Assembly: GCA_903837125.1 (NCBI GenBank)
Contig: CAILTG010000055.1
Location: 2,199 to 66,198 of the forward strand
DNA from: Candidatus Magasanikiibacteriota bacterium
Lineage (GTDB): Bacteria; Patescibacteriota; Patescibacteriia; Magasanikbacterales; UBA922
Direction: 5' to 3'
DNA: 64,000 bases
Of the stretch, positions 3,872 to 29,956 are shown in pieces. Every line of letters starts with the position of its first letter. Position 1 is the stretch's first letter. The translations under genes and the position numbers were made by a program. The notes beneath the pieces were generated by a model. The model was not told the DNA's origin. It did no database searches and saw nothing but the letters and a program-made list of their open reading frames with translations.

Positions 3872-3906
3872 TAAAAAACTCGCCATTTCTAAGGCGAGTT
3901 TTTTAA
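3872..3906. terminator. Bidirectional intrinsic terminator between rpmB (+) and the 842-aa gene (-)
   Basis: Hairpin ACTCGCC-atttctaa-GGCGAGT followed by TTTTTT on plus and preceded by an A-run (a T-run on minus). Confidence 0.6.
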
Positions 3907-3920
3907 AACATATTTATCTA

Positions 3921-6449
3921 TTATTTTATAATAATTCCTGTAGTACAAATTCCACCGTTTTCTTGAATGCCAATAATATCTACTAGAGCACCAGTCTGTA
4001 TGGCAGTCTGCAACAATTGCTCTAAATTGACAACTCTTTGATCACAAGTAGTGATACCAGTGATACTGCCCTTAGTTAAGGCCAAATAGTTTGTAAAACT
4101 ACCATAACCATCACCGTCAGCATACTTTTTTACAACTCCTGAAAATCCTTCTGGTGTGCCTGTTAAAGGAACAACTACAGACAGACTTTCTACACAAATA
4201 CCACCATTGGTTTTTGTACCGCTTACTTCCACCTTCAAACCAGTTTTGATGGTAGTATTAATAAAATTTTTGAGATACAAAATGTTTTTATTACAAACAT
4301 CTAAACCAACTTGCACGCCCTTATCTAACTCTATGTAAGTTGAAAAACTACCATAACCGCCATCAGCAAATTCTCCCAAGTATCCACTATAAGTTTCTGT
4401 TACAGATTGCACCACAGCTTCAACAATAAAATTTTGACTATCTCCATAAACTTTATTGTTCACACCAACACGAATGAAATATTTTCCAGGAGCTATGTCT
4501 GTCCCAGGAGTCCAATTTGCCGTTCCTTTAAATAAAGCTGGTACGGTATAGATAGTTTTAACAAAATTTCCCTCTGAGGTATAAAGATCAAGTTTTCCCT
4601 CCTGATTATCCAAACCTTGCAAATCAATTACTTGCCATTTTACCAGATACTCAGTTCCTTGAGTAATTTTTACACCTTCAAAAGGAGCAATAACTTGGAC
4701 TGCATGGCCATCTGATGCCACCACATTAAAATTTTGACTATCTCCATAAACTTTACTATTCACACCAATGCGAATAAAATATTTTCCAGATGGTATATCT
4801 GTTCCAACATTCCAATAGCACGTTCCTTTAGTTAGATTTGGTACAGTGTAAACAGTTTTAACAAAATTCCCCTCTGAAGTATAAAGATCAAATTTACCTT
4901 CTTGATTATCAAGACCCTGTAAATCTACAATTTTCCATTGTATAAGATAATGGTCTCCTGGTTTAATTTGTTCACCTGAATTTGGGGTAATTACTTGAAT
5001 AGCCGAACCAGGTAAGTAATCTTTTATTACCTGAAAATTTAAAGTCACTCTATTATTTCCTTTAAATAATTCTGGAGCGTAATCCTCATAATCAGCAAAT
5101 AAAGTAACAACATATTCTCCTGCCCCTCGGCTAGGAGTAAAAATAAAACTCATGGAACAACTTTGTTGAACTTTTATAACTGAATCATTCCGACAGGTAT
5201 CATCCAAAGGTGCTGTTGCCCGAAAAACAGCTTCACCAGCATATTTTAATTCCATACCAAATGTATGTTTGGCTTCATAATCTTTGGTACCATTATTTCT
5301 AACATTAAACTTAATGGTTACCTCTTCTCCTGGTTTAAAATTTAATTTGCTAAGAACAGCATTCTCAATAACTAAATCAGGAAGATTTTGTATAAGTGAA
5401 TTCTCAATCACAAATACATCACTATACCAATACAACCCTTCACCATTTTTATCAAGATCAATTCTTAATTTCCAAGTGCCTGGCAAAATATTTTTAACAT
5501 CCCAAAACACCTGATTTTGTGTTATATCGCTAGCAGTAAACAAATCCATGGCTTTTTTGCCTGAAGGATACCAAACGCTTATATAACCTGGAGTTCCTGC
5601 GGGAATATTTTCAACATTCCACATTATTTTATATTGAGTACCAACCTTAAGTCGAGTGTTAAAATCAAGATTAGCAAAAACAATTTTTTTATTTCCTTGA
5701 TTTTCTTTATTATTATCAACCTCATTTTTAACAGCCACTTCATTAATCTGGCTTACAGTTTGCTGCTGCACATTTTTTACCATTAATTCTGTAGATTCAA
5801 CCTGACTAACAACTTTTTTAATTTCAGATTCATTAACCGGTAAATTTTGGTCCAACAAACCCTGAAGAACACTATTATAGGTTTCCAAAGAACTTTGAAT
5901 TTTATCTAGAAGTGCATAAACTGATTCCGTATCACCCATTTTTTCTAAATTTTTTGTGGCACTAGCAACCTTAGCAGTTTGTTTCATAACTTGGTTTTCT
6001 GTATCTTTAACCAGTTCACTACTTAAACTTCCTGTTTTGGCAACAACTTGTTGCATTTCTTTAAGACGCAGATTCAGTCTTTCCGCTTCCCAATTTGCTT
6101 TTTCTTTAGTTGAAAATATTAAGGCTGATTTTATTTCTTCAGAAACATTAACCTTTATTGGATAAAGCATGTCTCCTGGCAAAGCACCTTGAGCAGCCCA
6201 AACTGTGCCGCTACCAGCTCCAAAAATAATAACTAAAATCAACATTGCATAAGCAAATTTTCTATTAATTGAGAAAAATGAAAACTGAAATAATGAAGGG
6301 GGTTTTTCTTTTTCCATATTTTTATCTTTAAGAGGATTGGCGTTCAGGTAATCCAAAACTACACCATCCATAATGTTTTTCTCCTCCTCTGTTAAGTAAA
6401 CAGAATTTTTAATTTTTTGTATTTTCTCCGGAGTACTCATACTGAACAA
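3921..6449 (-). CDS. Putative anti-sigma factor. It has a short cytoplasmic N-terminus, a single TM helix and a large extracytoplasmic region with a duplicated ~97-aa beta-rich (Ig-like) domain and C-terminal Gly/Cys repeats
   Basis: 842 aa. The TM segment is FAYAMLILVIIFGAGSGTVWAA at about aa 65-90. It overlaps the 3' end of the upstream ECF sigma gene by 41 nt. There is an internal near-identical duplication (DNA 4441-4500 versus 4733-4790; protein ...VIDLQGLDNQEGK(L/F)DLYTSEGNFVKT(I/V)YTVP... twice). Confidence 0.5.
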   Translation of the reverse strand: MFSMSTPEKIQKIKNSVYLTEEEKNIMDGVVLDYLNANPLKDKNMEKEKPPSLFQFSFFSINRKFAYAMLILVIIFGAGSGTVWAAQGALPGDMLYPIKVNVSEEIKSALIFSTKEKANWEAERLNLRLKEMQQVVAKTGSLSSELVKDTENQVMKQTAKVASATKNLEKMGDTESVYALLDKIQSSLETYNSVLQGLLDQNLPVNESEIKKVVSQVESTELMVKNVQQQTVSQINEVAVKNEVDNNKENQGNKKIVFANLDFNTRLKVGTQYKIMWNVENIPAGTPGYISVWYPSGKKAMDLFTASDITQNQVFWDVKNILPGTWKLRIDLDKNGEGLYWYSDVFVIENSLIQNLPDLVIENAVLSKLNFKPGEEVTIKFNVRNNGTKDYEAKHTFGMELKYAGEAVFRATAPLDDTCRNDSVIKVQQSCSMSFIFTPSRGAGEYVVTLFADYEDYAPELFKGNNRVTLNFQVIKDYLPGSAIQVITPNSGEQIKPGDHYLIQWKIVDLQGLDNQEGKFDLYTSEGNFVKTVYTVPNLTKGTCYWNVGTDIPSGKYFIRIGVNSKVYGDSQNFNVVASDGHAVQVIAPFEGVKITQGTEYLVKWQVIDLQGLDNQEGKLDLYTSEGNFVKTIYTVPALFKGTANWTPGTDIAPGKYFIRVGVNNKVYGDSQNFIVEAVVQSVTETYSGYLGEFADGGYGSFSTYIELDKGVQVGLDVCNKNILYLKNFINTTIKTGLKVEVSGTKTNGGICVESLSVVVPLTGTPEGFSGVVKKYADGDGYGSFTNYLALTKGSITGITTCDQRVVNLEQLLQTAIQTGALVDIIGIQENGGICTTGIIIK

Positions 6450-7353: not shown

Positions 7354-7740
7354 TTATATTTTCAAATCATCTACTGCACTGGTGTCTACATCATCGTTGT
7401 TCATACTAGACATACTAGATGAGTTAGACATATTTGACATACCCATACCACCAGACATACCAGGATTACTCATTCTTGGACCACGTCCGCCTATTGGTTC
7501 ATTAATTTTTAAATTAACTCGAGCATTATTTTTGGCACCCACAATTTTTAATAAAGTGCGGATAGAACGAGCGGTTTGACCTTGACGACCAATTACATAA
7601 CCCATGTCTTGAGGATTGATGTCCAATGTTAACAATACGCCTCTTTCGTCAACTGTGCGAACTACTTTTACATCGTTAGGATTGTTGACAATACCCTTAA
7701 CTATGTATTCAAGAAAATCTTGATCGCTAATATTTGCCAT
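7354..7740 (-). CDS. KH-domain RNA-binding protein (KhpA/YlqC-like) with a Met/Ser/Gly/Asn-rich low-complexity C-terminal tail
   Basis: 128 aa. It has a KH fold signature (VIGRQGQTARSIRTLLKIVGAK) and the conserved position just downstream of rpsP. The tail is ...GGRGPRMSNPGMSGGMGMSNMSNSSSMSSMNNDD. Confidence 0.7.
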   Translation of the reverse strand: MANISDQDFLEYIVKGIVNNPNDVKVVRTVDERGVLLTLDINPQDMGYVIGRQGQTARSIRTLLKIVGAKNNARVNLKINEPIGGRGPRMSNPGMSGGMGMSNMSNSSSMSSMNNDDVDTSAVDDLKI

Positions 7741-7820: not shown

Positions 7821-7849
7821 ATTATATCATTATTATATTTGCCTGTCAA
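7821..7849 (-). promoter_or_regulatory. Perfect consensus sigma70 promoter (TTGACA-N17-TATAAT, minus strand) upstream of the KH-domain gene
   Basis: Plus-strand tgtcaa at 7844-7849 and attata at 7821-7826 read as TTGACA-17nt-TATAAT on minus, about 80 nt upstream of the ATG at 7740. The leader contains an imperfect hairpin (7768-7812). Confidence 0.5.
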
Positions 7850-12532: not shown

Positions 12533-13510
12533 ATGGAGCGTATTTCTAAACAAATCTACAACGAAATAATGAAGGCTAAAAATATCCTAATCGTCCCCCA
12601 TCAAAATCCTGATGGCGATGCCCTGGGTTCGGTTTCTTCGTTAGCTCACTACTTCAACCGTATTAACAAACCATATACGGTTTTTTGTGTTACCCCCATG
12701 CCTATAAATTTAACTATTTATCCGCACTTAATCCACCCTTCTTCAGCTGAGGCTATCTGGCAAGATAAATCATTTGACGTAATTATTGTCATGGATTCAG
12801 GAGATTTGAAATACGCCGGAATAGATAAACATGTGGCGAAATTGGAGCATGAACCAATAATTATTAATATTGACCACCATGCTACCAATCAAAAATTTGG
12901 CCATTATAATTTGGTAATGCCTTCGGCTTCTTCGGCCAGTGAAATAATTTACTATTTTTTTAAAAAAAATAACATTGAAATTGATAAAAAAATGGCCTCG
13001 GCCATTATGCTAGGATTAATTACTGATACGGAAAACTTTACCAATCCTGGCACCACGGTTTCTTCATTTACAGTGGCTTCTGACTTAATAAAAAAAGGCG
13101 CTAATTTTAATTTGCTCAAAAGTTTATTCTTAAAAAACAAAACCATTCCCGCGCTTAAACTTTGGGGTACAGTGCTTTCCCGTTTAGAAAAAAATCAAGT
13201 TTTAGATATTGTTTACACTTATATAACACAAGAAGATTTAATTTTAAACCAAGCCAGTGAAACTGAAATAGAAGGCATTACCAATTTTTTAAATAATTTA
13301 AATGAAGGCCGTGGTGCCTTAATTTTGAAGCAGCTAGAACCAGGAAAAATAAAAGGCAGCTTTCGTACCACCCGCGATGATTTTGATGTTTCGGCTATAG
13401 CCAAAATCTTGGGTGGCGGCGGACACAGAAAAGCGGCAGGGTTTACCATACCCGGTACCATAGAAGAAGCACTTAACAAAATCTGGGAAGAAATAAAAAG
13501 AACGGCCTAA
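12533..13510 (+). CDS. nrnA: DHH/DHHA1 family phosphoesterase (NrnA-like oligoribonuclease/pAp phosphatase)
   Basis: It has the DHH motifs (HQNPDGDALGS; IINIDHH) and the DHHA1 GGGH motif (GGGGHRKAAGF). The start is taken at MERISKQIYNEIMKAKNILIV (ATG 12533), because the ORF-track start at 12476 lies inside the promoter. Confidence 0.75.
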   Translation: MERISKQIYNEIMKAKNILIVPHQNPDGDALGSVSSLAHYFNRINKPYTVFCVTPMPINLTIYPHLIHPSSAEAIWQDKSFDVIIVMDSGDLKYAGIDKHVAKLEHEPIIINIDHHATNQKFGHYNLVMPSASSASEIIYYFFKKNNIEIDKKMASAIMLGLITDTENFTNPGTTVSSFTVASDLIKKGANFNLLKSLFLKNKTIPALKLWGTVLSRLEKNQVLDIVYTYITQEDLILNQASETEIEGITNFLNNLNEGRGALILKQLEPGKIKGSFRTTRDDFDVSAIAKILGGGGHRKAAGFTIPGTIEEALNKIWEEIKRTA

Positions 13511-13520
13511 GCCGTTCTTT

Positions 13521-16500
13521 TTATTTATACAAAACTTCATCTTTAAAAGCCTTCAACATAACAATCAATGTTTGCCTCTCCTGGTAAGAAATATCTTCAA
13601 CTTTAAATTGAGCGTTATCGGCTTTATTTGTCCCCTCTTGTTTGGCTTGGTCAGAATACATTTCACTTAAAAATCTAAGTTTATAAGACATACTTAACAA
13701 CTGTTCACAAATATCAGCCTCATGCTCTGTTAAAACATTATTTTCCATTAAGAAATTTATTTTCCCAACCAAGCTTGCTGGCACTTCTTTTCCTTTGGCT
13801 CTATCTATTTTTCCCTCAGCAATTCCTGAAAATATTAAATAATCAACTTTCATCATAATAGAACGTTGCAAAGAAAATTTTATTCTCTCCATCATTTTTC
13901 CAGTAGAAACATCTTGATACAATTTTTCAAATTGATCTACATAAGCTTCTTTTCCGGGTTTACCAATTTCCAAATCTTTTTGAATAAACAATGGCAAAAT
14001 AGCCACTCTTTCATCATCTTTAAACAACAATTCTTTTGCTTTATCAGTTACACGTTGACCATCGGCAAAAAAAGGTTCTAAATCTATAACTGCAGTTGGC
14101 TCAACTGTTTGTTTACCAGTCCCATCGGCTTTAACTTTTAGTTGGTCTATTGCCGACAAAAATACCAAAGGTTTTTCATCTTTATTAGCCTTTCCAGCAT
14201 CAGCAATAACTTTTTTATCTGCCATTAAATCATTAATAATTACCTTTAAATAATTATTAACAAAATCCTCTAATTTTGATAGGAATTGTATTTTACCTTC
14301 TTCCTCAATAACTGTATCATCTACCAAAAGGTTATAGTCAATATCAGAACCCAAAGCTAATTCAACTCGTCCACCACTACCAGCGATAGCAGGAATAATA
14401 ATTTTTTTAAATTTTTCTAATAAATTAGGATCAAAAACATTACCACTCTCGGCAATAACCCAAGCATCAGCCCATAATCTTTTCATTAATTGTTTTTTTT
14501 GTTCAGTAAACAATTGAGCAATTTCTTGTAAACGCACCGTGATTAATTCAGATGAAGCTACTCTAATTTTTTCTTTTTCATCTGATCCTTTTGAATCCAC
14601 ACTTCCTGAAGAAATTTTAGTAAATAATGCTCTTAACTTTGACTCACTAAAAGGATCAACCAGATGTGCCAAAGCATTAATATATTTTTTAGCTTCCTGC
14701 TTAAAGACTTTCATTTCTTCATCATTTAATTCAACAAATTTTTTACCAAACAAAACATATGGTAATTGATGCTCAAAAAAATTGGTAATAAAATAATTTT
14801 CTTGCAATTCACGATCTAAACCAGAAACTTCAAATGAAGCACTTTCTCCTTTATTTACTTTACGATAAACTCTGTTAGTACCTTCAAAAATATCTTTCAC
14901 AGCCTTAAGCTTTATTTTACTTCTAGTACGACTTCTAATAAATTCCATTATCTCTTCAAAACTACTATCACGATACCATTCTAATGCAGCTTTTTCTTCA
15001 CTTTCCTTACCTTTTTCACTAGGCAATGGTCCTTTATTTAAATCATTACTACTCAAAAATGAAACTAAAACTACCAAATCTTCCTTTGATTCGCCACTTT
15101 GAATCGCCGCGACTGCTTTATCAATAACCATTCTATGCTTAGGACCTAAACCATCACTTTTATAATATTTATAAACACCATTAATTACTTCTCTAGGATA
15201 ACCTAACTTAGACAAACGATTATAAAACATTTTTAATTCATCAAATTCTTGTGGACTAAGCAACATCTTTCCTTCGGCATCCATAACATTAATATATCCA
15301 CCCCAAGTGGCAATATCCTTTTTTACATTATCAATAACCGATTGATTAGAAACTTTAATTACCACACCTGTAATCTCTGAACTCGGAATACCATCCAATA
15401 CCAACTCATGATCTTCACCAATTACCCCAGAATGCTTCGGTGGCCTTTTTTTACCACTTTCACTTTGTCGATAATTTGAATAGACAATGTGAATATCGCC
15501 ATATCCGTCAATATAATTTTTTAATTTTTTTAATCGATCCGAAAAATCAGGAGAATTATTTACGACTGTTACGCGTGACACGTCTGTACCCAGTAATCCA
15601 GAACCATCTCTTTTAGTATCTGGACCTAACAATTCTCCTGGTAAATTACCTGCTTCCAAAATAAGAGCCAAAGATTGCGACTTAGCCCCATGAGTAATTG
15701 CGGCAGTTTTATCCTCACAAGAAAGTAATAATTCTGCTGACGATTTTCCGGCCATCAAATCTTCATAAATTTGTCTATTTCTTTTATCGGCTTCAGCTAA
15801 AATTCTCTCAATTTCTTCAATTTTGCTTGTTTCGCCTTTTCTTCTTAAATTTCTTATTTCTCTTTCATTACCAGAAAACCGTACTACTTCTTGCACATCG
15901 GCTTGAACAATATCCCTTAATTTTCTTTTGAACTCGTCAGAAGTTGATGAGGCTCTTGTACTTTCAACCAATTCTTTATCAAAACATTCTTCTAAATTAT
16001 ACATGTCCAAAAATAACAAACGCTTTTCTGATTCAGAAACATCTGAAGAATCAAACATTCTTTTAATTTCTTGCAATTTTTTTGACATTTCAACCCGCAC
16101 AACTGAAAGAGGTAATTTTTTTTCAGCCAGCTGATTATAAAATTCAAACAACTTATTTATAATCAACCCTTTCATTACTCCCAATTTTTTTGGATCATGA
16201 AAAGTTCTGGCCACAGTAGGATTGAATTGTATAAACAATTCAATTAAACTATTCCTAGCTTTATTTAAAAGTTCTGACTCTTCTTGACTAATCTCTCCTT
16301 GATTCTTTTTCTGGTCCAACTCATCAATTTTTTTACCAATTAAAGTAAAAACTGCTTCACTAAAAACCAATCCTAATTTTAAAAATTTATTAAAATTGTC
16401 AACTAAACTTCCAAAATTATCTTTTAAACTTAAAAGATAACCATTAGAAAGTTCAGTAAAATTTATACCTTTAATTTCTACTTGTGAAAATTTTCTTAAC

Positions 16501-19013
16501 AAATCATAATCATTGGAGCCAATTATTGAAGCTAACAATTCATCCCGTCTTTCTGGATAATCTTCCGATACTAGGTGAATTAAATGCTTTAAATCATCAA
16601 CCCTAAATTTAGAATAATCAGTATTTTTTATCATTCTATCTACAGCCTTTTGTCTTTGTTCTGGTGTAGACTCAATATACCGTCCCCATACCGGTCTTCC
16701 TTCCCCTGTTTCTGAATCTGCTTCCATTCTGGCTAAATAACGGTCAAGTAATGCCAGTACTATTTTTGGGCCACCAATTGTTACAATTGCTTCCGATAAT
16801 TCTTCAATTTTTTCTTTGCTAACTTTATGCTTACCTAAAAATTCTAACCACCGAAGACCAGTAAATTGGTTCATTGACATTAGTTCATCAAGAGCTGCAG
16901 AGGCCTTTTCTCTAAGAATTGCTTCTAAAAGATCATCAAAAAACATATCTAGAGTATCACTCCTATACATAAAACCATTACTAACAAACTCAAGCAGTTG
17001 TTTAGCATGCCCAATTTTTAATAATTTTACTGCTAAACCATACACTTCAGGATCATCCAACTTTTTACCACTATTTATTAACTTAAAAAAATAATTTGAT
17101 AAAATATCCGGACTTCCTTTTTGCAATAAAACTTCTTCAATTTTTTGAAATCTCTGTTCCTTTGGTATCTTTAAAGGATCTAAACCTGTTAATTCTCTAT
17201 AAAATCTCAATTCCGCAATTTCTGCCTGAGATAGTATTCTACCTTCCTCAGAAGCTCCAATTCCATCAAAATATTCTATTCTATCATTGATTTGACTAAT
17301 CAAATTATAATTACGATCAACTAAAAAATAATCACCAAATATCTTATTGATACTTGATTCGGGCAACATTTTTCCCTCAATTACTGAACCTAACAGTATA
17401 GTTATTTCTCTTTCATAATCATCAGCCCTTGTTACATAACCGCAGACTATATTACTTTCTTTACCAACTTTTATTAATAAATCACTAATCCAATCTACAA
17501 AAATACCCTGCATTCTTTCTTTTCTTAATTGCGGATATTTGTTTGGATTTGAAAAATATTGTAAAAATATTTTTACGTCTTCTGCTATGTTGCCAGGATG
17601 TATTTCTCTTGATAATTGACCACTCAATACTTCGTAGGTTTGCTCGACAGTATAATCAAACAATTCTGGATTGGTAGCCATTACCAAAAAATTACTCGTA
17701 CTTTCTTTACATTTAACCAAAAAATTATCAACTTTTTCATCTGGAACCGGCTCATTGGGTGAAAGTCGCGAACTTCTTTGTTCTAAAGTTTTAACACCTA
17801 ATTTCAATTCTTCTTTTGTTAACTTAATAAAATTTAGAAATCCTCTAAGCTGATAATCAGATGTTACACTTAACAAAAGCCTTCTTCTACCGCTTTCATC
17901 TAATTTATCAATTAAATCTTGAAAAAGATTAGCATTATTAATAATATTTTCCGGATTTAGTTTTAAACAAGATTCAAAAAAAGTTTTTCTTTCTTCTTCT
18001 GAAAATAATTCGCTATTCAATCCATTTTCTGCATAACGCCTATCAAAACTATTGTCTACCGGTAAATAAGCCACAAAATCTCTTTTCATTGGATCATCTT
18101 TTAACTTATCAAACCAGACTCTAGCTTCTTGTGATAGTCGATTACGGTTGGAATGATTTGACCAGGTAGTTCCACGATAATTTGTAATATAGGGGGTGAC
18201 TAACAAATCTACATGCGAATTTAATTTATTTCCCAAATCATTATAAATTTCCCCCCATAAATTTCTCGATTCCTCACTACCATTTTCAATTCCGCCTGCC
18301 TGTTCTTTCTTTTTTAGTTCCAATTCTACCAAACGATCTTTAAACTTGTGTATTTCCACAGCCACCCAAATACAAGAATTAAAACCGCGTGCATTTGCAG
18401 GAAAATATTTCCAAATAGCCAACACTTGGTCTAAATCTTCCGCTGTAGGATTTTCCTTTTCAGCAAATGAATGAATATATTTTTCCATCAAAGTTGACAA
18501 CTCATTCAAAAAATAACCCCATTTATCTTCATCAGCCTTATTAGCACCAATATAATCCTTCACAATTGTTTCTAATTCTGCAATATTAGGCTTATCCTTT
18601 TTTCCGTCAAATTTTGATAATTTTCGTACCCGTCCCCTTAATTCTTTAATAACTACCGGACTGTCTTCTCTATCAAATTCTTTTCTTCTTTTTTCAATCT
18701 TTGCTTCTCTCATCAAAATAATTGGTTTTTTTAAAATTTTTAACAATTTTTCCATCATAGTTATTCTTACTTGAACAGCTTCTCTTCTTAAATCTGTAAG
18801 TTCTGCAATCTCCTGTGCCAATTCTGGGTCTGTCCCGATATCATCCATAACTTCAACAACGACTGCTTCAATAGCAGTAATTTCAGCATCAACCTTATGA
18901 GTTAATTCTTCTACCTTCAAATCACCATCTTCTACCGTTGGAGCGGTTTCTGAAGTACCAATTTGAACTTGTTCACTCAAATTTTTAGGTAATTTTTCGT
19001 CTTTACCAGGCAT
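13521..19013 (-). CDS. Giant 1830-aa protein of unknown function with a C-terminal GlnD/GlnE-(DUF294)-type nucleotidyltransferase motif
   Basis: A single uninterrupted ORF. Around aa 1535 it reads IIIPAIAGSGGRVELALGSDIDYNLLVDD (DNA about 14370-14440), matching the hG[GS]x9-13Dh[DE]h Pol-beta-superfamily NTase signature of GlnD/GlnE/DUF294 (GGYGRxELxxxSDIDL). No other domain was recognisable by eye. Confidence 0.65.
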   Translation of the reverse strand: MPGKDEKLPKNLSEQVQIGTSETAPTVEDGDLKVEELTHKVDAEITAIEAVVVEVMDDIGTDPELAQEIAELTDLRREAVQVRITMMEKLLKILKKPIILMREAKIEKRRKEFDREDSPVVIKELRGRVRKLSKFDGKKDKPNIAELETIVKDYIGANKADEDKWGYFLNELSTLMEKYIHSFAEKENPTAEDLDQVLAIWKYFPANARGFNSCIWVAVEIHKFKDRLVELELKKKEQAGGIENGSEESRNLWGEIYNDLGNKLNSHVDLLVTPYITNYRGTTWSNHSNRNRLSQEARVWFDKLKDDPMKRDFVAYLPVDNSFDRRYAENGLNSELFSEEERKTFFESCLKLNPENIINNANLFQDLIDKLDESGRRRLLLSVTSDYQLRGFLNFIKLTKEELKLGVKTLEQRSSRLSPNEPVPDEKVDNFLVKCKESTSNFLVMATNPELFDYTVEQTYEVLSGQLSREIHPGNIAEDVKIFLQYFSNPNKYPQLRKERMQGIFVDWISDLLIKVGKESNIVCGYVTRADDYEREITILLGSVIEGKMLPESSINKIFGDYFLVDRNYNLISQINDRIEYFDGIGASEEGRILSQAEIAELRFYRELTGLDPLKIPKEQRFQKIEEVLLQKGSPDILSNYFFKLINSGKKLDDPEVYGLAVKLLKIGHAKQLLEFVSNGFMYRSDTLDMFFDDLLEAILREKASAALDELMSMNQFTGLRWLEFLGKHKVSKEKIEELSEAIVTIGGPKIVLALLDRYLARMEADSETGEGRPVWGRYIESTPEQRQKAVDRMIKNTDYSKFRVDDLKHLIHLVSEDYPERRDELLASIIGSNDYDLLRKFSQVEIKGINFTELSNGYLLSLKDNFGSLVDNFNKFLKLGLVFSEAVFTLIGKKIDELDQKKNQGEISQEESELLNKARNSLIELFIQFNPTVARTFHDPKKLGVMKGLIINKLFEFYNQLAEKKLPLSVVRVEMSKKLQEIKRMFDSSDVSESEKRLLFLDMYNLEECFDKELVESTRASSTSDEFKRKLRDIVQADVQEVVRFSGNEREIRNLRRKGETSKIEEIERILAEADKRNRQIYEDLMAGKSSAELLLSCEDKTAAITHGAKSQSLALILEAGNLPGELLGPDTKRDGSGLLGTDVSRVTVVNNSPDFSDRLKKLKNYIDGYGDIHIVYSNYRQSESGKKRPPKHSGVIGEDHELVLDGIPSSEITGVVIKVSNQSVIDNVKKDIATWGGYINVMDAEGKMLLSPQEFDELKMFYNRLSKLGYPREVINGVYKYYKSDGLGPKHRMVIDKAVAAIQSGESKEDLVVLVSFLSSNDLNKGPLPSEKGKESEEKAALEWYRDSSFEEIMEFIRSRTRSKIKLKAVKDIFEGTNRVYRKVNKGESASFEVSGLDRELQENYFITNFFEHQLPYVLFGKKFVELNDEEMKVFKQEAKKYINALAHLVDPFSESKLRALFTKISSGSVDSKGSDEKEKIRVASSELITVRLQEIAQLFTEQKKQLMKRLWADAWVIAESGNVFDPNLLEKFKKIIIPAIAGSGGRVELALGSDIDYNLLVDDTVIEEEGKIQFLSKLEDFVNNYLKVIINDLMADKKVIADAGKANKDEKPLVFLSAIDQLKVKADGTGKQTVEPTAVIDLEPFFADGQRVTDKAKELLFKDDERVAILPLFIQKDLEIGKPGKEAYVDQFEKLYQDVSTGKMMERIKFSLQRSIMMKVDYLIFSGIAEGKIDRAKGKEVPASLVGKINFLMENNVLTEHEADICEQLLSMSYKLRFLSEMYSDQAKQEGTNKADNAQFKVEDISYQERQTLIVMLKAFKDEVLYK

Positions 19014-19388: not shown

Positions 19389-20003
19389 ATGAACAACTCC
19401 AAAAACAACCAAACAGAGCCATCTTCTCAATACCTTATTCCCACAGTAATTGAAAAAACCAGTAATGGCGAAAGGGCTTATGACATATATTCTCGTCTAC
19501 TAAAAGACCGAATAATTTTCTTAGGCAGTGCCATTGACGATGGTGTAGCCAATACCGTAATCGCCCAACTATTATTTTTGGCCAACCAAAATCCAGATGA
19601 AGATATTAAATTGTATATAAATTCTCCTGGTGGATCAGTTAGTGCCGGCCTGGCGATTTATGATACTATGCAATTTATTAAACCCGATGTTTCTACCATT
19701 TGTGTAGGCATGGCGGCTTCCATGGCTTCAGTATTATTGGCAGCCGGAGCCAAAGGCAAAAGATTTTGTTTACCAAATTCTGAAGTAATGATTCATCAAA
19801 TTATGGGCGGCATGGAAGGCCAGGCTTCAGACATTAAAATTCATGCCGAAAGAATTCTCAAACTCAAAACTAGATTAAATGAAATTTTAGTTAAGCATAC
19901 CGGCCAAACTTTGGATAAAATAGACAAAGATACTGACCGCGATTATTTTATGGATGCCAAAGAGGCAGTGAAGTATGGACTGGTAGATAAAATGATTGAG
20001 TAA
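19389..20003 (+). CDS. clpP: ATP-dependent Clp protease proteolytic subunit
   Basis: 204 aa. It has the catalytic Ser motif ([14 protein letters not shown]), His (MIHQ) and a canonical ClpP fold sequence ([24 protein letters not shown]). Confidence 0.9.
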
Positions 20004-26000: not shown

Positions 26001-27461
26001 TGAAACCTGACCCATGGGTTGTTTAACCATTTTATACTCAGCCTCACTCCAAACTTCTCCCTGGAGATTTGGGTAAGACAAACCAACCTGCAACTCCTCC
26101 CCTTTTTCTGTGGCTGCTTGTTTTTGTTTTTCAGCTATTTTCAAAGCTAAAAGAAAACTATGTAATTTTTCTAAAAAAAGTTTTCGGTAACCCATTGTTC
26201 CATGAGCAAATTCCTGAACCCTAAATTCCTCTTGCAAAACTCTGGAACCACCACTTTCTAAACTTCTCTGGCCTTCAACAGTAAGATAATATTGATACCC
26301 ATTTAATTCTGCCATTATTTCTAATAATTCTGGAACTGTTTTGTCAGAGAATTCACTTCCTCTGGCTTCTGGTTTTTTATCTTTCTCTCTTATTGTAACC
26401 AAAGCCTCCTTAACTTTATCTGGAAAAGGACTCATTTTCCTAGCCGCATTTGGCAATGGCAAATCTGTTGAATTAAATAACTTTTCTAATTCAACTATTC
26501 TGCTTGCAGTGGGCGGATGCGAAGATCCAAAAATAATACCCAAACTAGAGCCGTCACTTTTCCCGAAATGATGAAACGCTTCTATTAAACCTCTTGGGTT
26601 ATAGCCACTAGCATCGGCAATTTTCATTCCCTCGGCATCAGCATCATATTCCAGTCGTTGACTCTCTTCAGGACTTTTATCCTCTTTAAAATATTTTGGC
26701 TGTAAAAGGTGAGAAAATTCATGAGCTAAAACACCGGCCAACTCATCTATGGTGTCCATATTATTCACCAAACCCAAGTTAATAAAAATTGGCAGTTCAA
26801 TTTCCTCTTTACTACCAGATTGTAAATAATCTTTTAACAAAACACCGCTATCATTTCTCAAAACAAAAGCATTTATTGAACGATCCTTGGTTAAGTGCAC
26901 TAAGGGCATTAAATTTTTTAACCCGGCGGCCCTAAATAAATTTTGAACAATATTTTGTAAACAGCTTCTTACTTCTTTAAAAGCACACAATAATTCTTTG
27001 CTCTCCACAGGATGAGAACCTTCGGACAATTCTGAGCTATAATCTTCAGACTTTACGCAATAGTCACGAATAGGGTTGCGGGTTTCATCTACCAATTTTG
27101 CTCTTGCTTCTTTAAATTTTTCCAATCTTTCAGATTTTTTACCGGACAAAGTTAAGTCCCTATCTAAACTATCGTGTAATTTTTTTACAGCCCCTGCTTC
27201 TACAGCCGATAGTTGTTCTTTAATTTCTGCTAATCTTTCCAAATCAACATATTCTGTGCCTTTCACACGAATAACGCAGGTAGCAAAAACGCCACTCTTT
27301 GTTGACAAAGCATCACAGATTTTCCTTAAATTTGGATCACTAATATTCATCCGAACTAAAAAAGTATCCAAATCTTTTTTTAGATACAAAACTGTTCCTT
27401 TTTTGCGCCTCTCCCATTCTTTCCCTCTTTCGGCGCGTCTATGTGTATAGTCCATATACAA
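20061..27461 (-). CDS. Giant 2466-aa multidomain protein with an N-terminal M48-type HExxH zinc metallopeptidase module and a C-terminal UbiB/ABC1-like atypical protein kinase module
   Basis: At aa about 235-330: LAGVLAHEFSHLLQ ... QRLEYDADAEGMKIADASGYNPRGLIEAF (the M48/BepA-like HExxH plus ExxAD..G...GY(D/N)P pattern). At aa about 2150-2400: LKDKTKPFS...IGEIVGSASIKEVAKG...QIVAIKGKQPNI... and GIFHADLHSGNFYLD...IDLGSVG (UbiB signatures FHADPHPGN and DFG; DNA 20641-20690). No TM helix is apparent. Confidence 0.65.
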   Translation of the reverse strand: MYMDYTHRRAERGKEWERRKKGTVLYLKKDLDTFLVRMNISDPNLRKICDALSTKSGVFATCVIRVKGTEYVDLERLAEIKEQLSAVEAGAVKKLHDSLDRDLTLSGKKSERLEKFKEARAKLVDETRNPIRDYCVKSEDYSSELSEGSHPVESKELLCAFKEVRSCLQNIVQNLFRAAGLKNLMPLVHLTKDRSINAFVLRNDSGVLLKDYLQSGSKEEIELPIFINLGLVNNMDTIDELAGVLAHEFSHLLQPKYFKEDKSPEESQRLEYDADAEGMKIADASGYNPRGLIEAFHHFGKSDGSSLGIIFGSSHPPTASRIVELEKLFNSTDLPLPNAARKMSPFPDKVKEALVTIREKDKKPEARGSEFSDKTVPELLEIMAELNGYQYYLTVEGQRSLESGGSRVLQEEFRVQEFAHGTMGYRKLFLEKLHSFLLALKIAEKQKQAATEKGEELQVGLSYPNLQGEVWSEAEYKMVKQPMGQVSDEELTIEQRVLWANTPDEIKKMEVNSKIILGEKEQRKEMVAKNDLESRELNSEDFEDWLKEDEYTSDFWDLISKRYYQGAPLGRADKLFCLKKIFFEFLHLETRNQYNNNILAVETSKLVKSKIKKKIIKPRAEAAKLAILDSLPLAGRVHKRREEESPLEEVEIEEEISKIVGKTVYATTKYYVNLEFDSWSKKSTDQPPLVREFSKTLEEKTVMSYREFLKHEGLENISDKALRFVLSHLYNNIDEENGRLLIFRQLDKVDIKFLNEVNQILECKNLHKVFSTDGSCIFRNRQNKLHYEILSVIAFGLEAKDDEEYNTQIEYLRRFELDPTAPPGIQLDLGLSEDCDVKLNEKYLYGFQLSGGKTRNQNSACLRVSDTHLAATEERLWLEYGKKIVDKTEQVGSEQAAERVYTSHILETDIASKLAIFFGLQSKDLKRKFKETKLKALAGKVLNFVEQVRGYIEVAYSEGLLTDRTLQNFFKEERNFQTNDYGTTAIHNISHLVDEGAKVMQTGFLEIGKQGEYAGDISKLLWQVLKSSYTLEDVLERIELVRGLDGNSDQDKIYKETENEATCFSDGSVWLHHRPKDSALSYRDKTGQPFTSAENVLKYLEKISRPGVKELKDFFVKKYQGKYSEGDYFFLKIKALCLGNFVSFTQFTDDIHPKNKEKFYSTFIEFWRKLSVVYREDWSQIEGFKKLDEQMSHWEWIQLNPAGLGVDVERIDNRDRKKPKKIIERENFPKHLYEEYAFFLSRIYKRDNIDLQFTGFSWQLFMQDVWNGDATEFIVKNIETLVGSDKPNAEKMGKFRQDLPKFRSELKRVVEDRGNLEEIKKMQPGFFKEFILDKKMQFLGVQTLEEIEEWAKHFTSFAHEGSERNQISSQIENAKQTEKSWKKKKEFFVAALQQEDVEILNPESFAHTMNGKGSLTVVVRLPCEERIEFKVADTDLNAENLQNDGGVLSLSDRGIIIYDVAHLVNVQSGKYTIQERGKFDLRQTEYDVKVNKVRKKKINTTYDKAREFSELQSRLLQRYNLLSTSSEERLGSLTLAKESEVMVFSDQVVENEKSRLEIGPVYRLRWVSQPLMDWHTKALDEAENLADTEKLSVRVLEDLPDRHPLRDVFIKNQLAVEIWQILETTLGADLLEKLGVQLNKTDIDLDEVLEHFPLYKDISFLKKYRIFKVENVVKALEKLPKEQAYLIRHKIEQAMSEKISPDAKPVLRRLLMEVERIALWPELQENIKKDPGTFDEYLHRINSLYEEPTWEKDYVLESIGMDLAQTPDQIRQVWMMRYSEEVKWPKGDESKMVGRQFSSIEKFRFYIAGLNPIERSDYLIWMLGGKQPFAEKFSVEQTGISLEERANVLWEMTPNERRHLLYDLLLGQNGVMEAKGGDTSLADDASDEDVENIYPWKMWERENDLIRHTVDNVFKSIFKEQRIDDSLPEEHETNQRGKELLETIFRELFVQQKEPARRAELMVNIVEAVGATKKEGKEMSAGEIIKLLLEQIGVVGIKAGQVLSEQPGLLPEKIRRELSGLKDKTKPFSKRGLLAYAESAGLVHGDEGMIRQIGEIVGSASIKEVAKGLTEDNQIVAIKGKQPNIDKNFVADMEVLRKIVAVLESKKFNVPSYLLDEIERLVIDELSFVNEAENQRKMGESLKQREATLELSFKSGSTETVFLGVTAPLQINEVSYPGSEEDEDIGLMVEEFVHGLSLKEIQEFQRAVEESDVEKIKEIGKRLAELYGKERLQDIEKRILDLDVGKLQSELGLEFLREVTTGGIFHADLHSGNFYLDVVPLLKPKATFIDLGSVGCSKSESMPNHLKKKYEGEYDGAEDFRDFLTSLFGLQLRPEKCLLKISELVKKYASVSWDEGKIQEIIGSDVSTKDKANKILYALLEESGEKMDSQFRYLLKATVTAADHLDNLSRTVMEEMVTLDENVAKRLLAGEIDDVELKERGLVTLGKINKEKLINLDLLGLKELLG

Positions 27462-27553
27462 ACTTTATTAGACTATAATATGATAAGCATATAATCACGT
27501 CGAGTTTCGCAAAAAACAAAACCAACATTTTATTTTTTGACTCAACTCTAGCG

Positions 27554-27582
27554 ATTATAGCACATTTTAGCCTTTTTGTCAA
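27554..27582 (-). promoter_or_regulatory. Perfect consensus sigma70 promoter (TTGACA-N17-TATAAT) for the 2466-aa gene
   Basis: Plus-strand tgtcaa at 27577-27582 and attata at 27554-27559, with an exact 17-nt spacer, about 90 nt upstream of the ATG at 27461. Confidence 0.55.
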
Positions 27583-27605
27583 CTCAAATTTTGGCTAATT
27601 TAAAA

Positions 27606-27650
27606 CAAAAAAAACAAACCCCGTCTCGCTTTAACGAAATCGGGGTTTTT
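27606..27650. terminator. Intrinsic terminator (bidirectional) ending the candidate sRNA
   Basis: CCCCG-tctcgctttaacgaaat-CGGGG flanked by an A-run (27601-27618) and a T-run (27646-27650). Confidence 0.6.
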
Positions 27651-27887
27651 GATTTTGAAGAGGGAATTATCCCCCAATACTGCATCCAAGAAGGTGTGTT
27701 GTAGGAAAAGACGAGCCGAAGCCTGTACTGCCCTATCACACACCTCCATGCTTGTCGTGGATACAGAAAGATGCCTGTTTTGATGAATATTGAGCGATAA
27801 AACCAGCACTTATTCTGAATCCAACTTCTTATTTTTTAAAATGAATGATTGAATGACTAAATGATTGATAACTTACCTGCTTATAGG
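27651..27887 (-). ncRNA. Candidate structured sRNA (about 280 nt including the terminator), class unknown
   Basis: A transcript is predicted from the perfect promoter at 27894-27922 to the terminator at 27606-27650. It has no credible ORF. It is visibly GC-richer than the surroundings and has long-range complementarity (GGTGTGTG...CACACACC, TAGG...CCTA, GC-UUCG-GC). It matched no RNase P, tmRNA, SRP or 6S consensus by eye. Confidence 0.35.
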
Positions 27888-27893
27888 CAACAG

Positions 27894-27922
27894 AGGATTA
27901 TATCACACACAGATCATTCTGT
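27894..27922 (-). promoter_or_regulatory. Perfect consensus sigma70 promoter (TTGACA-N17-TATAAT) driving the candidate sRNA
   Basis: Plus-strand tgtcaa at 27917-27922 and attata at 27894-27899, with an exact 17-nt spacer. It lies between the VanW-gene terminator and the GC-rich region. Confidence 0.5.
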
Positions 27923-27933
27923 CAAGGAGGATA

Positions 27934-27970
27934 TGGGGATAAATAAAAAATTTCGCTCTATTAAGCGAAA
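27934..27970 (-). terminator. Intrinsic terminator of the VanW-family gene
   Basis: A perfect 10-bp stem AAATTTCGCT-ctatta-AGCGAAATTT followed on the minus strand by TTTTTTATTTAT. Confidence 0.55.
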
Positions 27971-28015
27971 TTTTATAATTTTAAATCTTTCAATCATCTA
28001 ATCATTCGCCACTCC

Positions 28016-29956
28016 TCACTCCACTGTCGCTGGTACATCCACAGCAGTTTCTAAAGTACTGGTACTTGCCAGCACCTCTACTCCCACCAAACAAATTTTT
28101 GGCAGAGCCCGATAATGACTTTCAAAAACCCGATCTTCTTTTTGGCCATTAGCTAAAATACGAGTGTAAGTAAAAGAAGTATCCGCCCCTCTAAAAGCAT
28201 TCTGACATTGTCTTTTTCCTGGAGCAATTTTATCTGTTTCTACATCTTTAGGATCACCCACTGAATACCACTTTAACACTACCGGATGAGTATAACTCCC
28301 CTGCCGGCCATCACTAGTACCCCACAAAGTAAATTCCAGTTCCTGTTTTTTAACATTCATAAAAGTTTGCAAAAGCAAATAATTACCAGTATCATTCAAA
28401 AATTTAAAATCAGGAGCTGGATCATAAACAGTGGCATCAGTACCAGGATTATGATTAAAAGCGTCATTATAATGAGAAACCACCAAAGAATGATTTCTGC
28501 GTTCGGTAATAGTCATACCAGAATTCATAGCCATCCGAAACAAAGTAGTGCCAATCTGACAAAGACCACCGCCAATTTCTGCTTTCATTTCATCTCCTTT
28601 AATTACCAACTCCGGAAAATAACCACCCTCTAAAGTAAATGGAGCGGTATATTTTAAAGTAGAGAATTCTTCACCTGGTTTTATTAAAATACCATTCAAT
28701 TTATTAATAGCATTTTTTATATTTTTAATACGATTATTAGGACTGTTGGAATAATCAGAATAACCCACACCTAACATTTCTTTAACACCTAAATTATTAA
28801 CATCACCGGTTTTTATGTTTGGCTCAACTTGAACCACAGCAATAGTTATCGCCTTGGTTAAACCCTGATCATGCCAAGTACGGTCAATAACCGCCTGATT
28901 AATTAAATTATAAGTTGTCTCTACATCTACCGTTAATCCAGGACGAGAACCTAAAAATTCCACCACCTTACCATTTTCATCCATTTTAAATTTAGCATCC
29001 AAAGGTGAAACATCTATATCTGCGGCAGTTATTTTCTTTAAAAAAGCCACCACTGAGTCTTTAGCTAAACCTATAACAAAATCATTATTGGTGGTTTTTT
29101 GTACATTCAACCAACTTTTTATTTGATCCAAATTAATGAGCCAACCATATTCTCTTCTGGTTTCTGGATTAGTATATTGCAAATGTAAATCACCGGCCAA
29201 AAAAACCTGAGGCAATCTTTTTTCAAGAGCCAACACATCATTCTCTAGCACATCGGGAATTTTTTCTTGTCTACCTATTTCCAAATTGATTGCTTCCAGC
29301 TCCGACCAGTTATTCCCCACCTGGCTGCTAATATTTTGATAATCAAAAATTACCCCTGGGGAAGAAGAAACTATTTTATAATTCAAAGGATTGATAGACT
29401 GAACTGAGAGCGAAGCATTTTGGGGAGGAATTTCTTCACTAATTAAATTTTCTTTTATGGCCTCAACCAGTCTAACTTCATCCACTTTAACAGTTTGCAA
29501 CTTCACCTGTTCTTTATTAAAAAGCAAAGAAAGTAAATTAAGTGTTTGAGAAAAAAAATCATTACTTTTTTTATAATTTAATAAAAGAGGTACTTCTTTT
29601 TCAATATCCAAACTCACCAAATCCACTGAATCGCCTTGGGTGGTAATAACTGGATAAATAGTAAAACTCTTTTTTTTGCCATTGACCTCATAATTAAAAT
29701 GCAGACCTTCATTAACTAATTTATTATCCATTTTCTGCAAAAAACCTTTTAAATCCCCAGCAGTCAAGCCGCCAATACCAATTTCACCCAAATAAACATT
29801 GGGAAATACTTTATTTTTAAAAGTATAAGCATAAACCGAAAAGCCAGAAAACAATAAAATAACCACCAAAAAAAATACCCCCACAACAAAAAAAATACGG
29901 GGCCGATAAAACCTTATTTTAACCTCCTTAAAAAAATTGGCTACTTTTTCTTTCAT
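28016..29956 (-). CDS. VanW-family protein with an N-terminal membrane anchor
   Basis: 646 aa. It has an N-terminal TM helix (IFFVVGVFFLVVILLFSGFSVYAY) and a VanW-domain signature GGGLCQIGTTLFRMAMNSGMTITERRNH (compare G-G-V-C-Q-x-S-T-T-L). Confidence 0.55.
   Translation of the reverse strand: MKEKVANFFKEVKIRFYRPRIFFVVGVFFLVVILLFSGFSVYAYTFKNKVFPNVYLGEIGIGGLTAGDLKGFLQKMDNKLVNEGLHFNYEVNGKKKSFTIYPVITTQGDSVDLVSLDIEKEVPLLLNYKKSNDFFSQTLNLLSLLFNKEQVKLQTVKVDEVRLVEAIKENLISEEIPPQNASLSVQSINPLNYKIVSSSPGVIFDYQNISSQVGNNWSELEAINLEIGRQEKIPDVLENDVLALEKRLPQVFLAGDLHLQYTNPETRREYGWLINLDQIKSWLNVQKTTNNDFVIGLAKDSVVAFLKKITAADIDVSPLDAKFKMDENGKVVEFLGSRPGLTVDVETTYNLINQAVIDRTWHDQGLTKAITIAVVQVEPNIKTGDVNNLGVKEMLGVGYSDYSNSPNNRIKNIKNAINKLNGILIKPGEEFSTLKYTAPFTLEGGYFPELVIKGDEMKAEIGGGLCQIGTTLFRMAMNSGMTITERRNHSLVVSHYNDAFNHNPGTDATVYDPAPDFKFLNDTGNYLLLQTFMNVKKQELEFTLWGTSDGRQGSYTHPVVLKWYSVGDPKDVETDKIAPGKRQCQNAFRGADTSFTYTRILANGQKEDRVFESHYRALPKICLVGVEVLASTSTLETAVDVPATVE

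Follow-up and report, generated by a model that had tools for sequence, protein, structure and literature searches.

A structured RNA gene next to VanW that very probably represents a new RNA family of Magasanikbacteria-type bacteria

Within a 64,000-nucleotide (nt) stretch of DNA from a Candidatus Magasanikiibacteriota bacterium (contig CAILTG010000055.1 of assembly GCA_903837125.1, positions 2,199 to 66,198 of the forward strand; the whole stretch is referred to here as the window), the spacer between a VanW gene and a gene for a protein of 2466 amino acids (aa) very probably harbours a real, conserved and stand-alone structured RNA gene that belongs to a new family. The predicted product is a non-coding transcript of ~285 nt on the minus strand (27890-27607), which is bounded by a promoter and a terminator of its own, folds with a z-score of -5.3 and lacks a conserved open reading frame (ORF). 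Conservation of this structured RNA and covariation within it were found in more than 50 relatives, and it is well supported that the family is restricted to Magasanikbacteria-type bacteria of the Candidate Phyla Radiation (CPR, Patescibacteria). All features of the RNA described below lie on the minus strand, and their coordinates are those of the window.

Results

A predicted transcript with its own promoter and terminator

Read along the minus strand, the RNA-bearing spacer begins after the VanW gene (28016-29956; Pfam domains VanW and PG_binding_4) and ends at the 2466-aa gene (27461-20061, minus strand), which encodes Peptidase_M48 and ABC1 domains. Two transcription signals in the spacer lie outside the RNA, namely a terminator hairpin of the VanW gene (27974-27947), which is situated between VanW and the RNA promoter, and a perfect promoter that belongs to the 2466-aa gene itself (27582-27554). 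The RNA-gene promoter (27925-27897) matches TTGACA-17-TATAAT at 12 of 12 positions and is of the extended -10 type: the -35 element TTGACA (27925-27920) is followed by a 17-nt spacer with TG at -15/-14 (27905-27904) and by the -10 element TATAAT (27902-27897), and transcription is predicted to start near 27890. Sites of the form TTGACA-N14-TGnTATAAT with no more than one mismatch occur three times in the window, against 0.06 expected by chance, and the RNA promoter is one of them. At the other end of the gene, the stem strands AAACCCCG...CGGGGUUU (27648-27616) and the U-run that follows them (27614-27607) form an intrinsic terminator (27648-27607), which folds at -21 kcal/mol and was overlooked by a simple scanner because its stem is interrupted by an inner bulge. 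The GC content rises to 0.46-0.47 over 27650-27800, compared to 0.28-0.34 in both flanks. For a 293-nt stretch the folding energy is -86.7 kcal/mol (z = -5.3), and none of 200 shuffles is as stable.

This arrangement agrees with an earlier note on the same DNA, which had described ~280 nt without a credible ORF and richer in GC than the surrounding sequence, framed by a perfect promoter at 27922-27894 and a strong terminator, with an intrinsic terminator of VanW on one side and a second perfect promoter (27582-27554) ahead of the 2466-aa gene on the other. Each of these features was recovered, the RNA promoter with a shift of 3 nt to its true place and the VanW terminator as the hairpin named above.

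Similar signals accompany the RNA in its relatives. A TTGACA-17-(TG)TATAAT-like promoter (at least 10 of 12 matches) lies 70-380 nt upstream of the conserved core in ~46 of 53 distinct copies and keeps a constant orientation relative to the RNA, and a hairpin with a folding energy of -7 kcal/mol or lower, joined to a U-tract, follows ~130 nt past the internal loop of the core in 47 of 52 copies. The transcripts predicted from these signals have a median length near 300 nt and span ~180-660 nt.

A covarying rod with an invariant internal loop

The conserved core, in the 3' half of the RNA, is an irregular 95-nt rod (27770-27677), for which RNAalifold and a hand-written structure concur. Its base is P1 (27766-27758 with 27688-27680), a helix of 9-10 base pairs (bp), and beyond it follow P2 (27747-27738 with 27699-27690; 10 bp between GGRGGUGUGU and ACACACCUUC), P3 (27735-27732 with 27705-27702; UAGG with CCUA, next to an irregular internal loop) and P4 (27726-27721 with 27716-27711; RCAGGC with GCUCGY). 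P4 is a continuous helix with one A/C mismatch and a UUCG/YNCG tip, which in the window is the UNCG-type cap UUCG (27720-27717). An asymmetric internal loop of 10 nt, CGACAAGCAU (27757-27748), faces a single U at 27689. Three long-range complementarities that the earlier note had picked out are helices supported by the relatives, GGTGTGTG/CACACACC being P2, TAGG/CCTA being P3 and GC-UUCG-GC being the tip of P4. Directly 3' of P1 stands a further hairpin, P5 (GGGGGA-UAAU-UCCCUC, 27675-27660), and then an A-rich spacer. A hairpin of variable sequence is present at the P5 position in ~45 of 53 homologues (median z = -3.2), and P1 is parted from the terminator by P5 together with 20-40 nt of A-rich spacer.

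Homologues were gathered by two routes. The unbiased set comprises nine Magasanikbacteria-type loci anchored on VanW, with 46-55% VanW identity (the window together with L001, L002, L004, L008 and L070-L073), and the RNA adjoins VanW in all nine, the window counted. The closest VanW relatives are labelled Candidatus Magasanikbacteria, Parcubacteria or Patescibacteria, which places the window among the CPR; a VanW scan of contigs from representative genomes, among which the window species is absent, yielded three loci, and an exact search for the window's VanW protein in an assembly index gave no match. The second route was a degenerate DNA pattern built on the first five copies, which fixes ACAAGCATGG, GG, CAGG and CTCG. 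Scanned against metagenomes, it returned 61 loci and, after clean-up, ~50 distinct further cores; L025 was rejected as a homologue, being a chance GC-rich match to the pattern. The same pattern gave no match in viral contigs and thus no sign of a phage origin.

The loop CGACAAGCAU is identical in nine of nine VanW-anchored loci, a set gathered without use of the DNA pattern. Among the pattern-derived loci, the ACAAGCAU part of the loop is invariant by construction, whereas the leading CG was free and varies. Unpaired nucleotides of the rod, as well as specific G.U and A/C positions, are also invariant. In an alignment of 50 distinct sequences, 95.2% of pair cells are standard and 15 of the 29 pairs have changed on both sides; one covarying pair, for example, is G-C in 25 sequences, A-U in 20 and G-U in four. 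When the 3' partner is slid by 1-3 columns, pairing falls to 37-51%. None of 500 shuffles attained any of the five observed pairing measures, a control that overstates significance and does not yield probabilities because the sequences are related.

A covariance model made from the core alignment, R1, gives the minus strand 99.9 bits at 27677-27770 and the plus strand 26 bits, and across the loci it yields 84-107 bits in the sense direction versus at most 26 bits in the antisense direction. It finds a single copy in the window and exactly one per related locus. The pattern-independent loci L070-L073 reach 84-98 bits with the loop unchanged, and new compensatory changes were seen among them, in L071 within P2 (GAUAUG/UAUAUC) and in L073 within P4 (U-A in place of C-G). 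Given the G.U pairs and the four-fold difference in score between the strands, we conclude that selection acts on the minus-strand RNA.

Searches against known families returned nothing that would account for this structure. Rfam 15 scans gave only tRNAs and noise, at the gathering score over the whole window as well as at E values up to 10 on 27350-28100 and up to 0.05 on 12 homologous loci, and no 6S, signal recognition particle (SRP) RNA, RNase P, tmRNA or self-cleaving ribozyme was among the matches. A tRNA-like domain, the criterion for tmRNA, was not found in the region, and a literature search that included the literal loop sequence found no description of such an RNA. The earlier note, which had seen by eye no likeness to RNase P, tmRNA, SRP or 6S, is borne out in this respect. 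It had also proposed an Rfam covariance-model scan of the locus and a comparative alignment of the spacer as checks: the former assigned the RNA to no known family, and the latter revealed both conservation and covariation.

Variable 5' modules and two competing helices

The region between the transcription start and the core contains zero to three units, each composed of a strand a, an AU-rich stem-loop, a strand a' and a linker. Strand a is a purine-rich strand of the GGAUAUAGAG type, a' is the CUCUGUAUCC strand, and the linker consists of (A)CGAC, a GC-rich hairpin and CAAG-N-CGAGG, with CCACGAC...CAAG...GAGG being reused between units. Each module terminates in CUGUAUCCA(CGAC); the modules share linker sequences, and their number varies by lineage. 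The window has one, L057, L043 and L072 have three each, and the divergent loci L033 and L061 have none, with transcripts that begin ~20 nt ahead of P1. The single accessory module of the window, H (27822-27759), is formed in the minimum free energy structure; its strand a is GGAUUCAGAA (27822-27813), its strand a' is UUCUGUAUCC (27768-27759), and an AU-rich stem-loop lies between them. These RNAs contain the motif CUGUAUCCA[CU] 61 times, compared to three occurrences elsewhere in 665 kb.

The 3' strand of the module, CUGUAUCC, is able to pair either upstream or downstream, and both pairings are conserved. The last a' also serves as the 5' strand of P1, so it pairs with the upstream a or with a downstream strand a'' (UGGAUACAG); in the window, a'' is UGGAUGCAG (27688-27680), the 3' strand of P1 and the rival of a (27822-27813) for a'. 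The a:a' helix (alignment A3) is 86% paired and has 6 of 10 pairs compensated, its outermost pair being G-C in 25 copies, A-U in 14 and U-A in five. The a':a'' helix, P1, is 97% paired and displays C-G compensation at three positions, where each U-to-C change in a' is met by a G. By computed energies the upstream a:a' helix is favoured in 39 of 50 copies, the median advantage being 3.9 kcal/mol, and in 17 copies the two pairings differ by no more than 2 kcal/mol. Because the module-free L033 has a perfect 10-bp P1, we regard P1-P4 as the functional core in its ancestral form.

The remaining 5' part of the transcript is a lineage-specific leader (27890-27826), which consists of a small hairpin (27890-27873) and an AU-rich stretch with three AAUCAUU-like repeats. 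It is shared with L040 only in part, and the 5' regions are very different among homologues. Inside this leader lies one arm (27868-27851) of an inverted repeat that the earlier note had described as bracketing the RNA; the upstream arm (27990-28007) is located in the VanW 3' untranslated region (UTR). The two arms, which enclose the promoter, are each built from repeats of the 8-nt unit RAAUGAYU, and 27851-27868 is complementary to 27990-28007 at 16 of 18 positions, above all of 40 dinucleotide shuffles. The repeat is therefore real but not conserved: the closest relative, L040, partly keeps the leader arm and has no VanW-side arm, which is why we treat the repeat as lineage-specific and outside the RNA family. 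The absence of the upstream arm from L040, together with the constant orientation of the promoter, also led us to drop a reading of the repeat as an invertible promoter. Judging by this complementarity, the repeat could let the RNA leader pair with the VanW mRNA in the window species.

Two further observations concern the modules. An RNase III gene is found in L071 (6934-7695), ~640 nt downstream of the RNA core and on the opposite strand; this single case is probably coincidental, but the long module hairpins would be substrates of the RNase III type. In public gene annotations, small hypothetical ORFs (40-103 aa) that lack a Pfam match overlap the RNA gene or its modules (L005 5029-5175 and 5313-5435, and L070 7747-7953 and 7950-8261), and these are probably annotation artefacts.

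Genomic context of the RNA gene

A census of neighbouring genes covered 53 distinct loci. VanW is adjacent to the RNA in 47 of them, upstream and co-oriented in 41 and opposed on the other side in six; clpP is present in 39 loci, 32 of which have it downstream and convergent, while Hsp20 is found in 33 and a DHH phosphoesterase in 27. The conserved order of the block is Hsp20-VanW-RNA-clpP-DHH, and in 6-7 loci (L004, for example) the RNA gene is flipped in place while its neighbours stay the same. In the window, clpP (19389-20003, plus strand) lies beyond the 2466-aa gene, and the DHH gene (12536-13501) lies beyond an 1830-aa gene without a Pfam match (13521-19013, minus strand); we therefore regard both large genes as insertions into the block. 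The 2466-aa gene is specific to this genome, and other loci carry other cargo at the same place: Dicty_CTDC/TSP_3 proteins in L004, AAA and NosD/beta-helix proteins in L073 and a 329-aa ORF in L070. The flank of the RNA gene thus looks like an insertion hot spot. This synteny with varying inserts, along with the perfect promoter that the giant gene has of its own, rules out that the RNA is a dedicated leader of the giant gene.

Directly upstream of the RNA promoter, an AT-rich palindrome, TTTGGCT-N6-AGCCAAA, recurs in several relatives (L008 ~5050-5075; L040 ~1015-990, minus strand; L004 ~5265-5295; L001 ~3880-3905), where it presumably serves to terminate VanW transcription. In the window, another hairpin occupies this position, and the half-site alone (TTAGCCAAAATT) is found at ~27596-27585. 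In a metagenome-assembled genome labelled Nomurabacteria (L006, with L007 identical), VanW is followed at ~5040-5240 by a different unit of ~170-200 nt, which comprises a long hairpin as well as a promoter and a terminator and could be either a 5' UTR or a small RNA of unrelated kind.

Finally, besides the promoters of the RNA and of the giant gene, the window contains a third perfect TTGACA-N14-TGnTATAAT site (7821-7849, minus strand). It is followed by a 5' UTR of ~80 nt and by a gene (7354-7740, minus strand) for a KhpA-type RNA-binding protein of 128 aa, which has a KH domain (Pfam KH_KhpA-B, E = 1e-22) and a tail rich in Gly, Ser and Met. This protein is a conceivable candidate for a partner of the RNA.

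Discussion

Much of bacterial diversity belongs to the CPR, or Patescibacteria, whose genomes measure ~1 Mb and contain few known regulators; to our knowledge, almost nothing has been described about their non-coding RNAs. The RNA family reported here is likely to be central to these bacteria, since it is kept across a whole CPR class with a near-perfect promoter, an invariant loop and a covarying rod. As the RNA falls into no Rfam 15 family, it adds a new entry to the few broadly conserved bacterial RNAs that are orphans in function. Its modular 5' repeats and the two exclusive, conserved helices provide a concrete and testable structural hypothesis, and the covariance model R1 would correct the spurious annotation of small ORFs over the RNA gene.

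Of the two functional options raised by the earlier note, the stand-alone, trans-acting one fits our results. We tentatively suggest that the RNA works in trans, is abundant and binds protein, be it as a component of a ribonucleoprotein particle or as a sequestering RNA. A protein partner would read the invariant loop together with the fixed non-canonical G.U and A/C pairs of the rod, and the repeated modules may multiply or gate the binding sites through exchange of the a' strand between its two alternative helices. The invariance of unpaired nucleotides and of G.U and A/C positions favours protein binding, as do the lineage-variable modules, the confinement of the module motif to the RNA and the finding of no loop-complementary target in the sequence searched, that is, the window and the related loci. 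We consider this mechanism possible, well short of probable, and, as a compromise between its two parts, we lean slightly towards the explanation as a whole, which combines the new RNA gene family with the protein-binding mechanism.

Several points weigh against this explanation. The ends of the transcript are predictions, and the protein-binding mechanism is argued by analogy. The two mutually exclusive helices could mean sensing or switching rather than plain binding. Invariance at the pattern-fixed columns is partly by construction, because most homologues came from the pattern and the unbiased set amounts to nine loci, and the relatedness of the sequences limits what the shuffle controls convey, as stated above. 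In addition, the RNA was not found at the Nomurabacteria-labelled VanW-anchored locus (L006/L007), where the best R1 score was 17 bits.

The RNA might instead be a base-pairing, trans-acting small RNA that uses the loop CGACAAGCAU or the lineage-specific leader as a seed for mRNAs, with the rod and terminator providing stability. A stand-alone gene with its own promoter and terminator is what such a regulator would have, and the invariant unpaired 10-mer and the complementarity of the window leader to the VanW 3' UTR (16 of 18 positions) would be natural seeds. However, no loop-complementary site beyond chance is present in the 64-kb window with up to two mismatches allowed, and in 600 kb of related loci the complement of the loop occurs only as the gene's own antisense strand. 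Moreover, the complementarity between leader and VanW is absent from the closest relative, L040, and a covarying rod with fixed non-canonical pairs exceeds the needs of a seed scaffold. We judge a base-pairing role to be unlikely. It also seems distinctly unlikely that the RNA is a CPR housekeeping RNA built around a three-partner switch, in which the CUGUAUCC strand would be passed between upstream and downstream purine-rich partners, with one to four such switches per molecule gating the invariant loop. That loop would recruit or sequester either RNA polymerase or an abundant RNA-binding protein, for which the KhpA-type KH protein, with one of the two other perfect promoters in the window, is one possible candidate.

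A divergent 6S-like RNA would regulate RNA polymerase, its rod and loop mimicking open promoter DNA and its alternative helices corresponding to the rearrangement caused by product RNA. The RNA is probably abundant, has a consensus promoter in a very small genome, and combines a rod that carries an internal loop with conserved, mutually exclusive helices, all of which would suit this role. Nevertheless, Rfam 6S models were not matched at E values up to 10, the loop sets 10 nt against 1 nt, a closing stem is missing, the core has just 95 nt, and the minimal form, L033, does without the accessory module, leaving a 6S-like function very unlikely. Little more can be said for a self-processing or processed RNA, whose tandem modules would form a precursor cut into small RNAs, for example by RNase III, or whose core would be a ribozyme. 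The long, near-perfect hairpins repeated zero to three times and the highly conserved loop nucleotides would be compatible with processing, yet no self-cleaving ribozyme of Rfam was matched, L033 is entirely free of modules, and there is no sign of cleavage sites; on this evidence, processing is very improbable indeed.

The cis-regulatory option of the earlier note, a leader, riboswitch or attenuator in which a conditional terminator controls the giant gene or antisense transcription into the convergent clpP, draws on the two mutually exclusive conserved helices upstream of a terminator and on the fact that read-through would be antisense to clpP in most genomes. It is contradicted by the genomic context, since the downstream gene is not conserved (the giant gene here, convergent clpP in 32 loci, and others in L004, L070 and L073), 6-7 loci have the RNA turned round to face VanW, and the giant gene owns a perfect promoter. 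Furthermore, the competing helices, a:a' and a':a'', do not include the terminator, and no overlap of terminator and antiterminator is visible because P5 and the A-rich spacer part the core from the terminator. The cis-leader reading is thus largely refuted by synteny, and we hold it to be highly improbable.

Least credible of all, to the point that we give it next to no weight, is a small protein-coding gene or a DNA-level binding or recombination site: differing gene content in the flank and sense ORFs of 51 and 69 aa in the window could be cited for it, but these ORFs read across the terminator, and stops and indels disrupt them in relatives, where single-base indels separate homologues and ATG/GTG frames in the core reach stops within a few codons (L001, L002), so that a coding reading was rejected, while a DNA site is at odds with strand-specific compensatory changes and G.U pairs (100 versus 26 bits) and with a promoter and terminator conserved on one strand.

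Comparison with known RNAs

Several candidate identities were set aside. RNase P RNA gave no covariance-model match, and neither tmRNA, considered on account of the clpP neighbour, nor an rRNA mimic found a supporting match. The loop presumably bears an imperfect likeness to the antisense of the 16S 1050-1067 region. A reading of CCUAAG/AUAGG as a GNRA tetraloop-receptor was rejected in view of its canonical pairing and the UNCG tip.

Riboswitch and attenuator leaders likewise have mutually exclusive conserved helices ahead of an intrinsic terminator, but the RNA described here has no conserved downstream gene or orientation, and its terminator stands apart from the switching helices. It also differs from ToxI-like type III antitoxins, in that its modules are zero to three imperfect and unequal units and no conserved downstream (toxin) gene is present. 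With the raiA, OLE, ROOL and GOLLD classes it shares strong covariation, its own transcription signals, confinement to one lineage and an orphan function, whereas it has no match in sequence or structure to them in Rfam 15 and a smaller core.

Closer in working logic are three kinds of RNA that bind proteins. 6S RNA (ssrS, RF00013) is similarly stand-alone and presumably abundant, with a sigma-70 promoter, a helical rod with an internal loop and alternative helices. Unlike 6S RNA, which has a two-sided bubble, the RNA here has a one-sided loop (10 nt versus 1 nt), does not match the covariance model, ends in a 3' terminator hairpin and a variable 5' end in place of a 5'-3' closing stem, and has a core of half the size preceded by variable 5' modules. 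SRP RNA (4.5S, RF00169/RF01854) is comparable as a ~100-nt hairpin rod that has conserved internal loops and a tetraloop at its tip and is retained in very small genomes; however, the tip here is of the UNCG and not the GNRA type, the conserved loop sits close to the base instead of beside the tip, the symmetric and asymmetric loop motifs of domain IV are absent, and there is no Rfam match. The CsrB/RsmZ sponges, finally, also place a promoter and terminator around a lineage-variable number of hairpin units that share short conserved sequences. The units here measure 60-100 nt instead of ~20 nt and accompany a non-repeated, far more conserved core, and there is no GGA-in-loop signature, the few GGA triplets being located in stems (P1, P2 and a) and the module loops being unconserved. 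A member of none of these families, the RNA most resembles, by analogy of working logic, the abundant protein-binding RNAs represented by 6S, 4.5S and CsrB.

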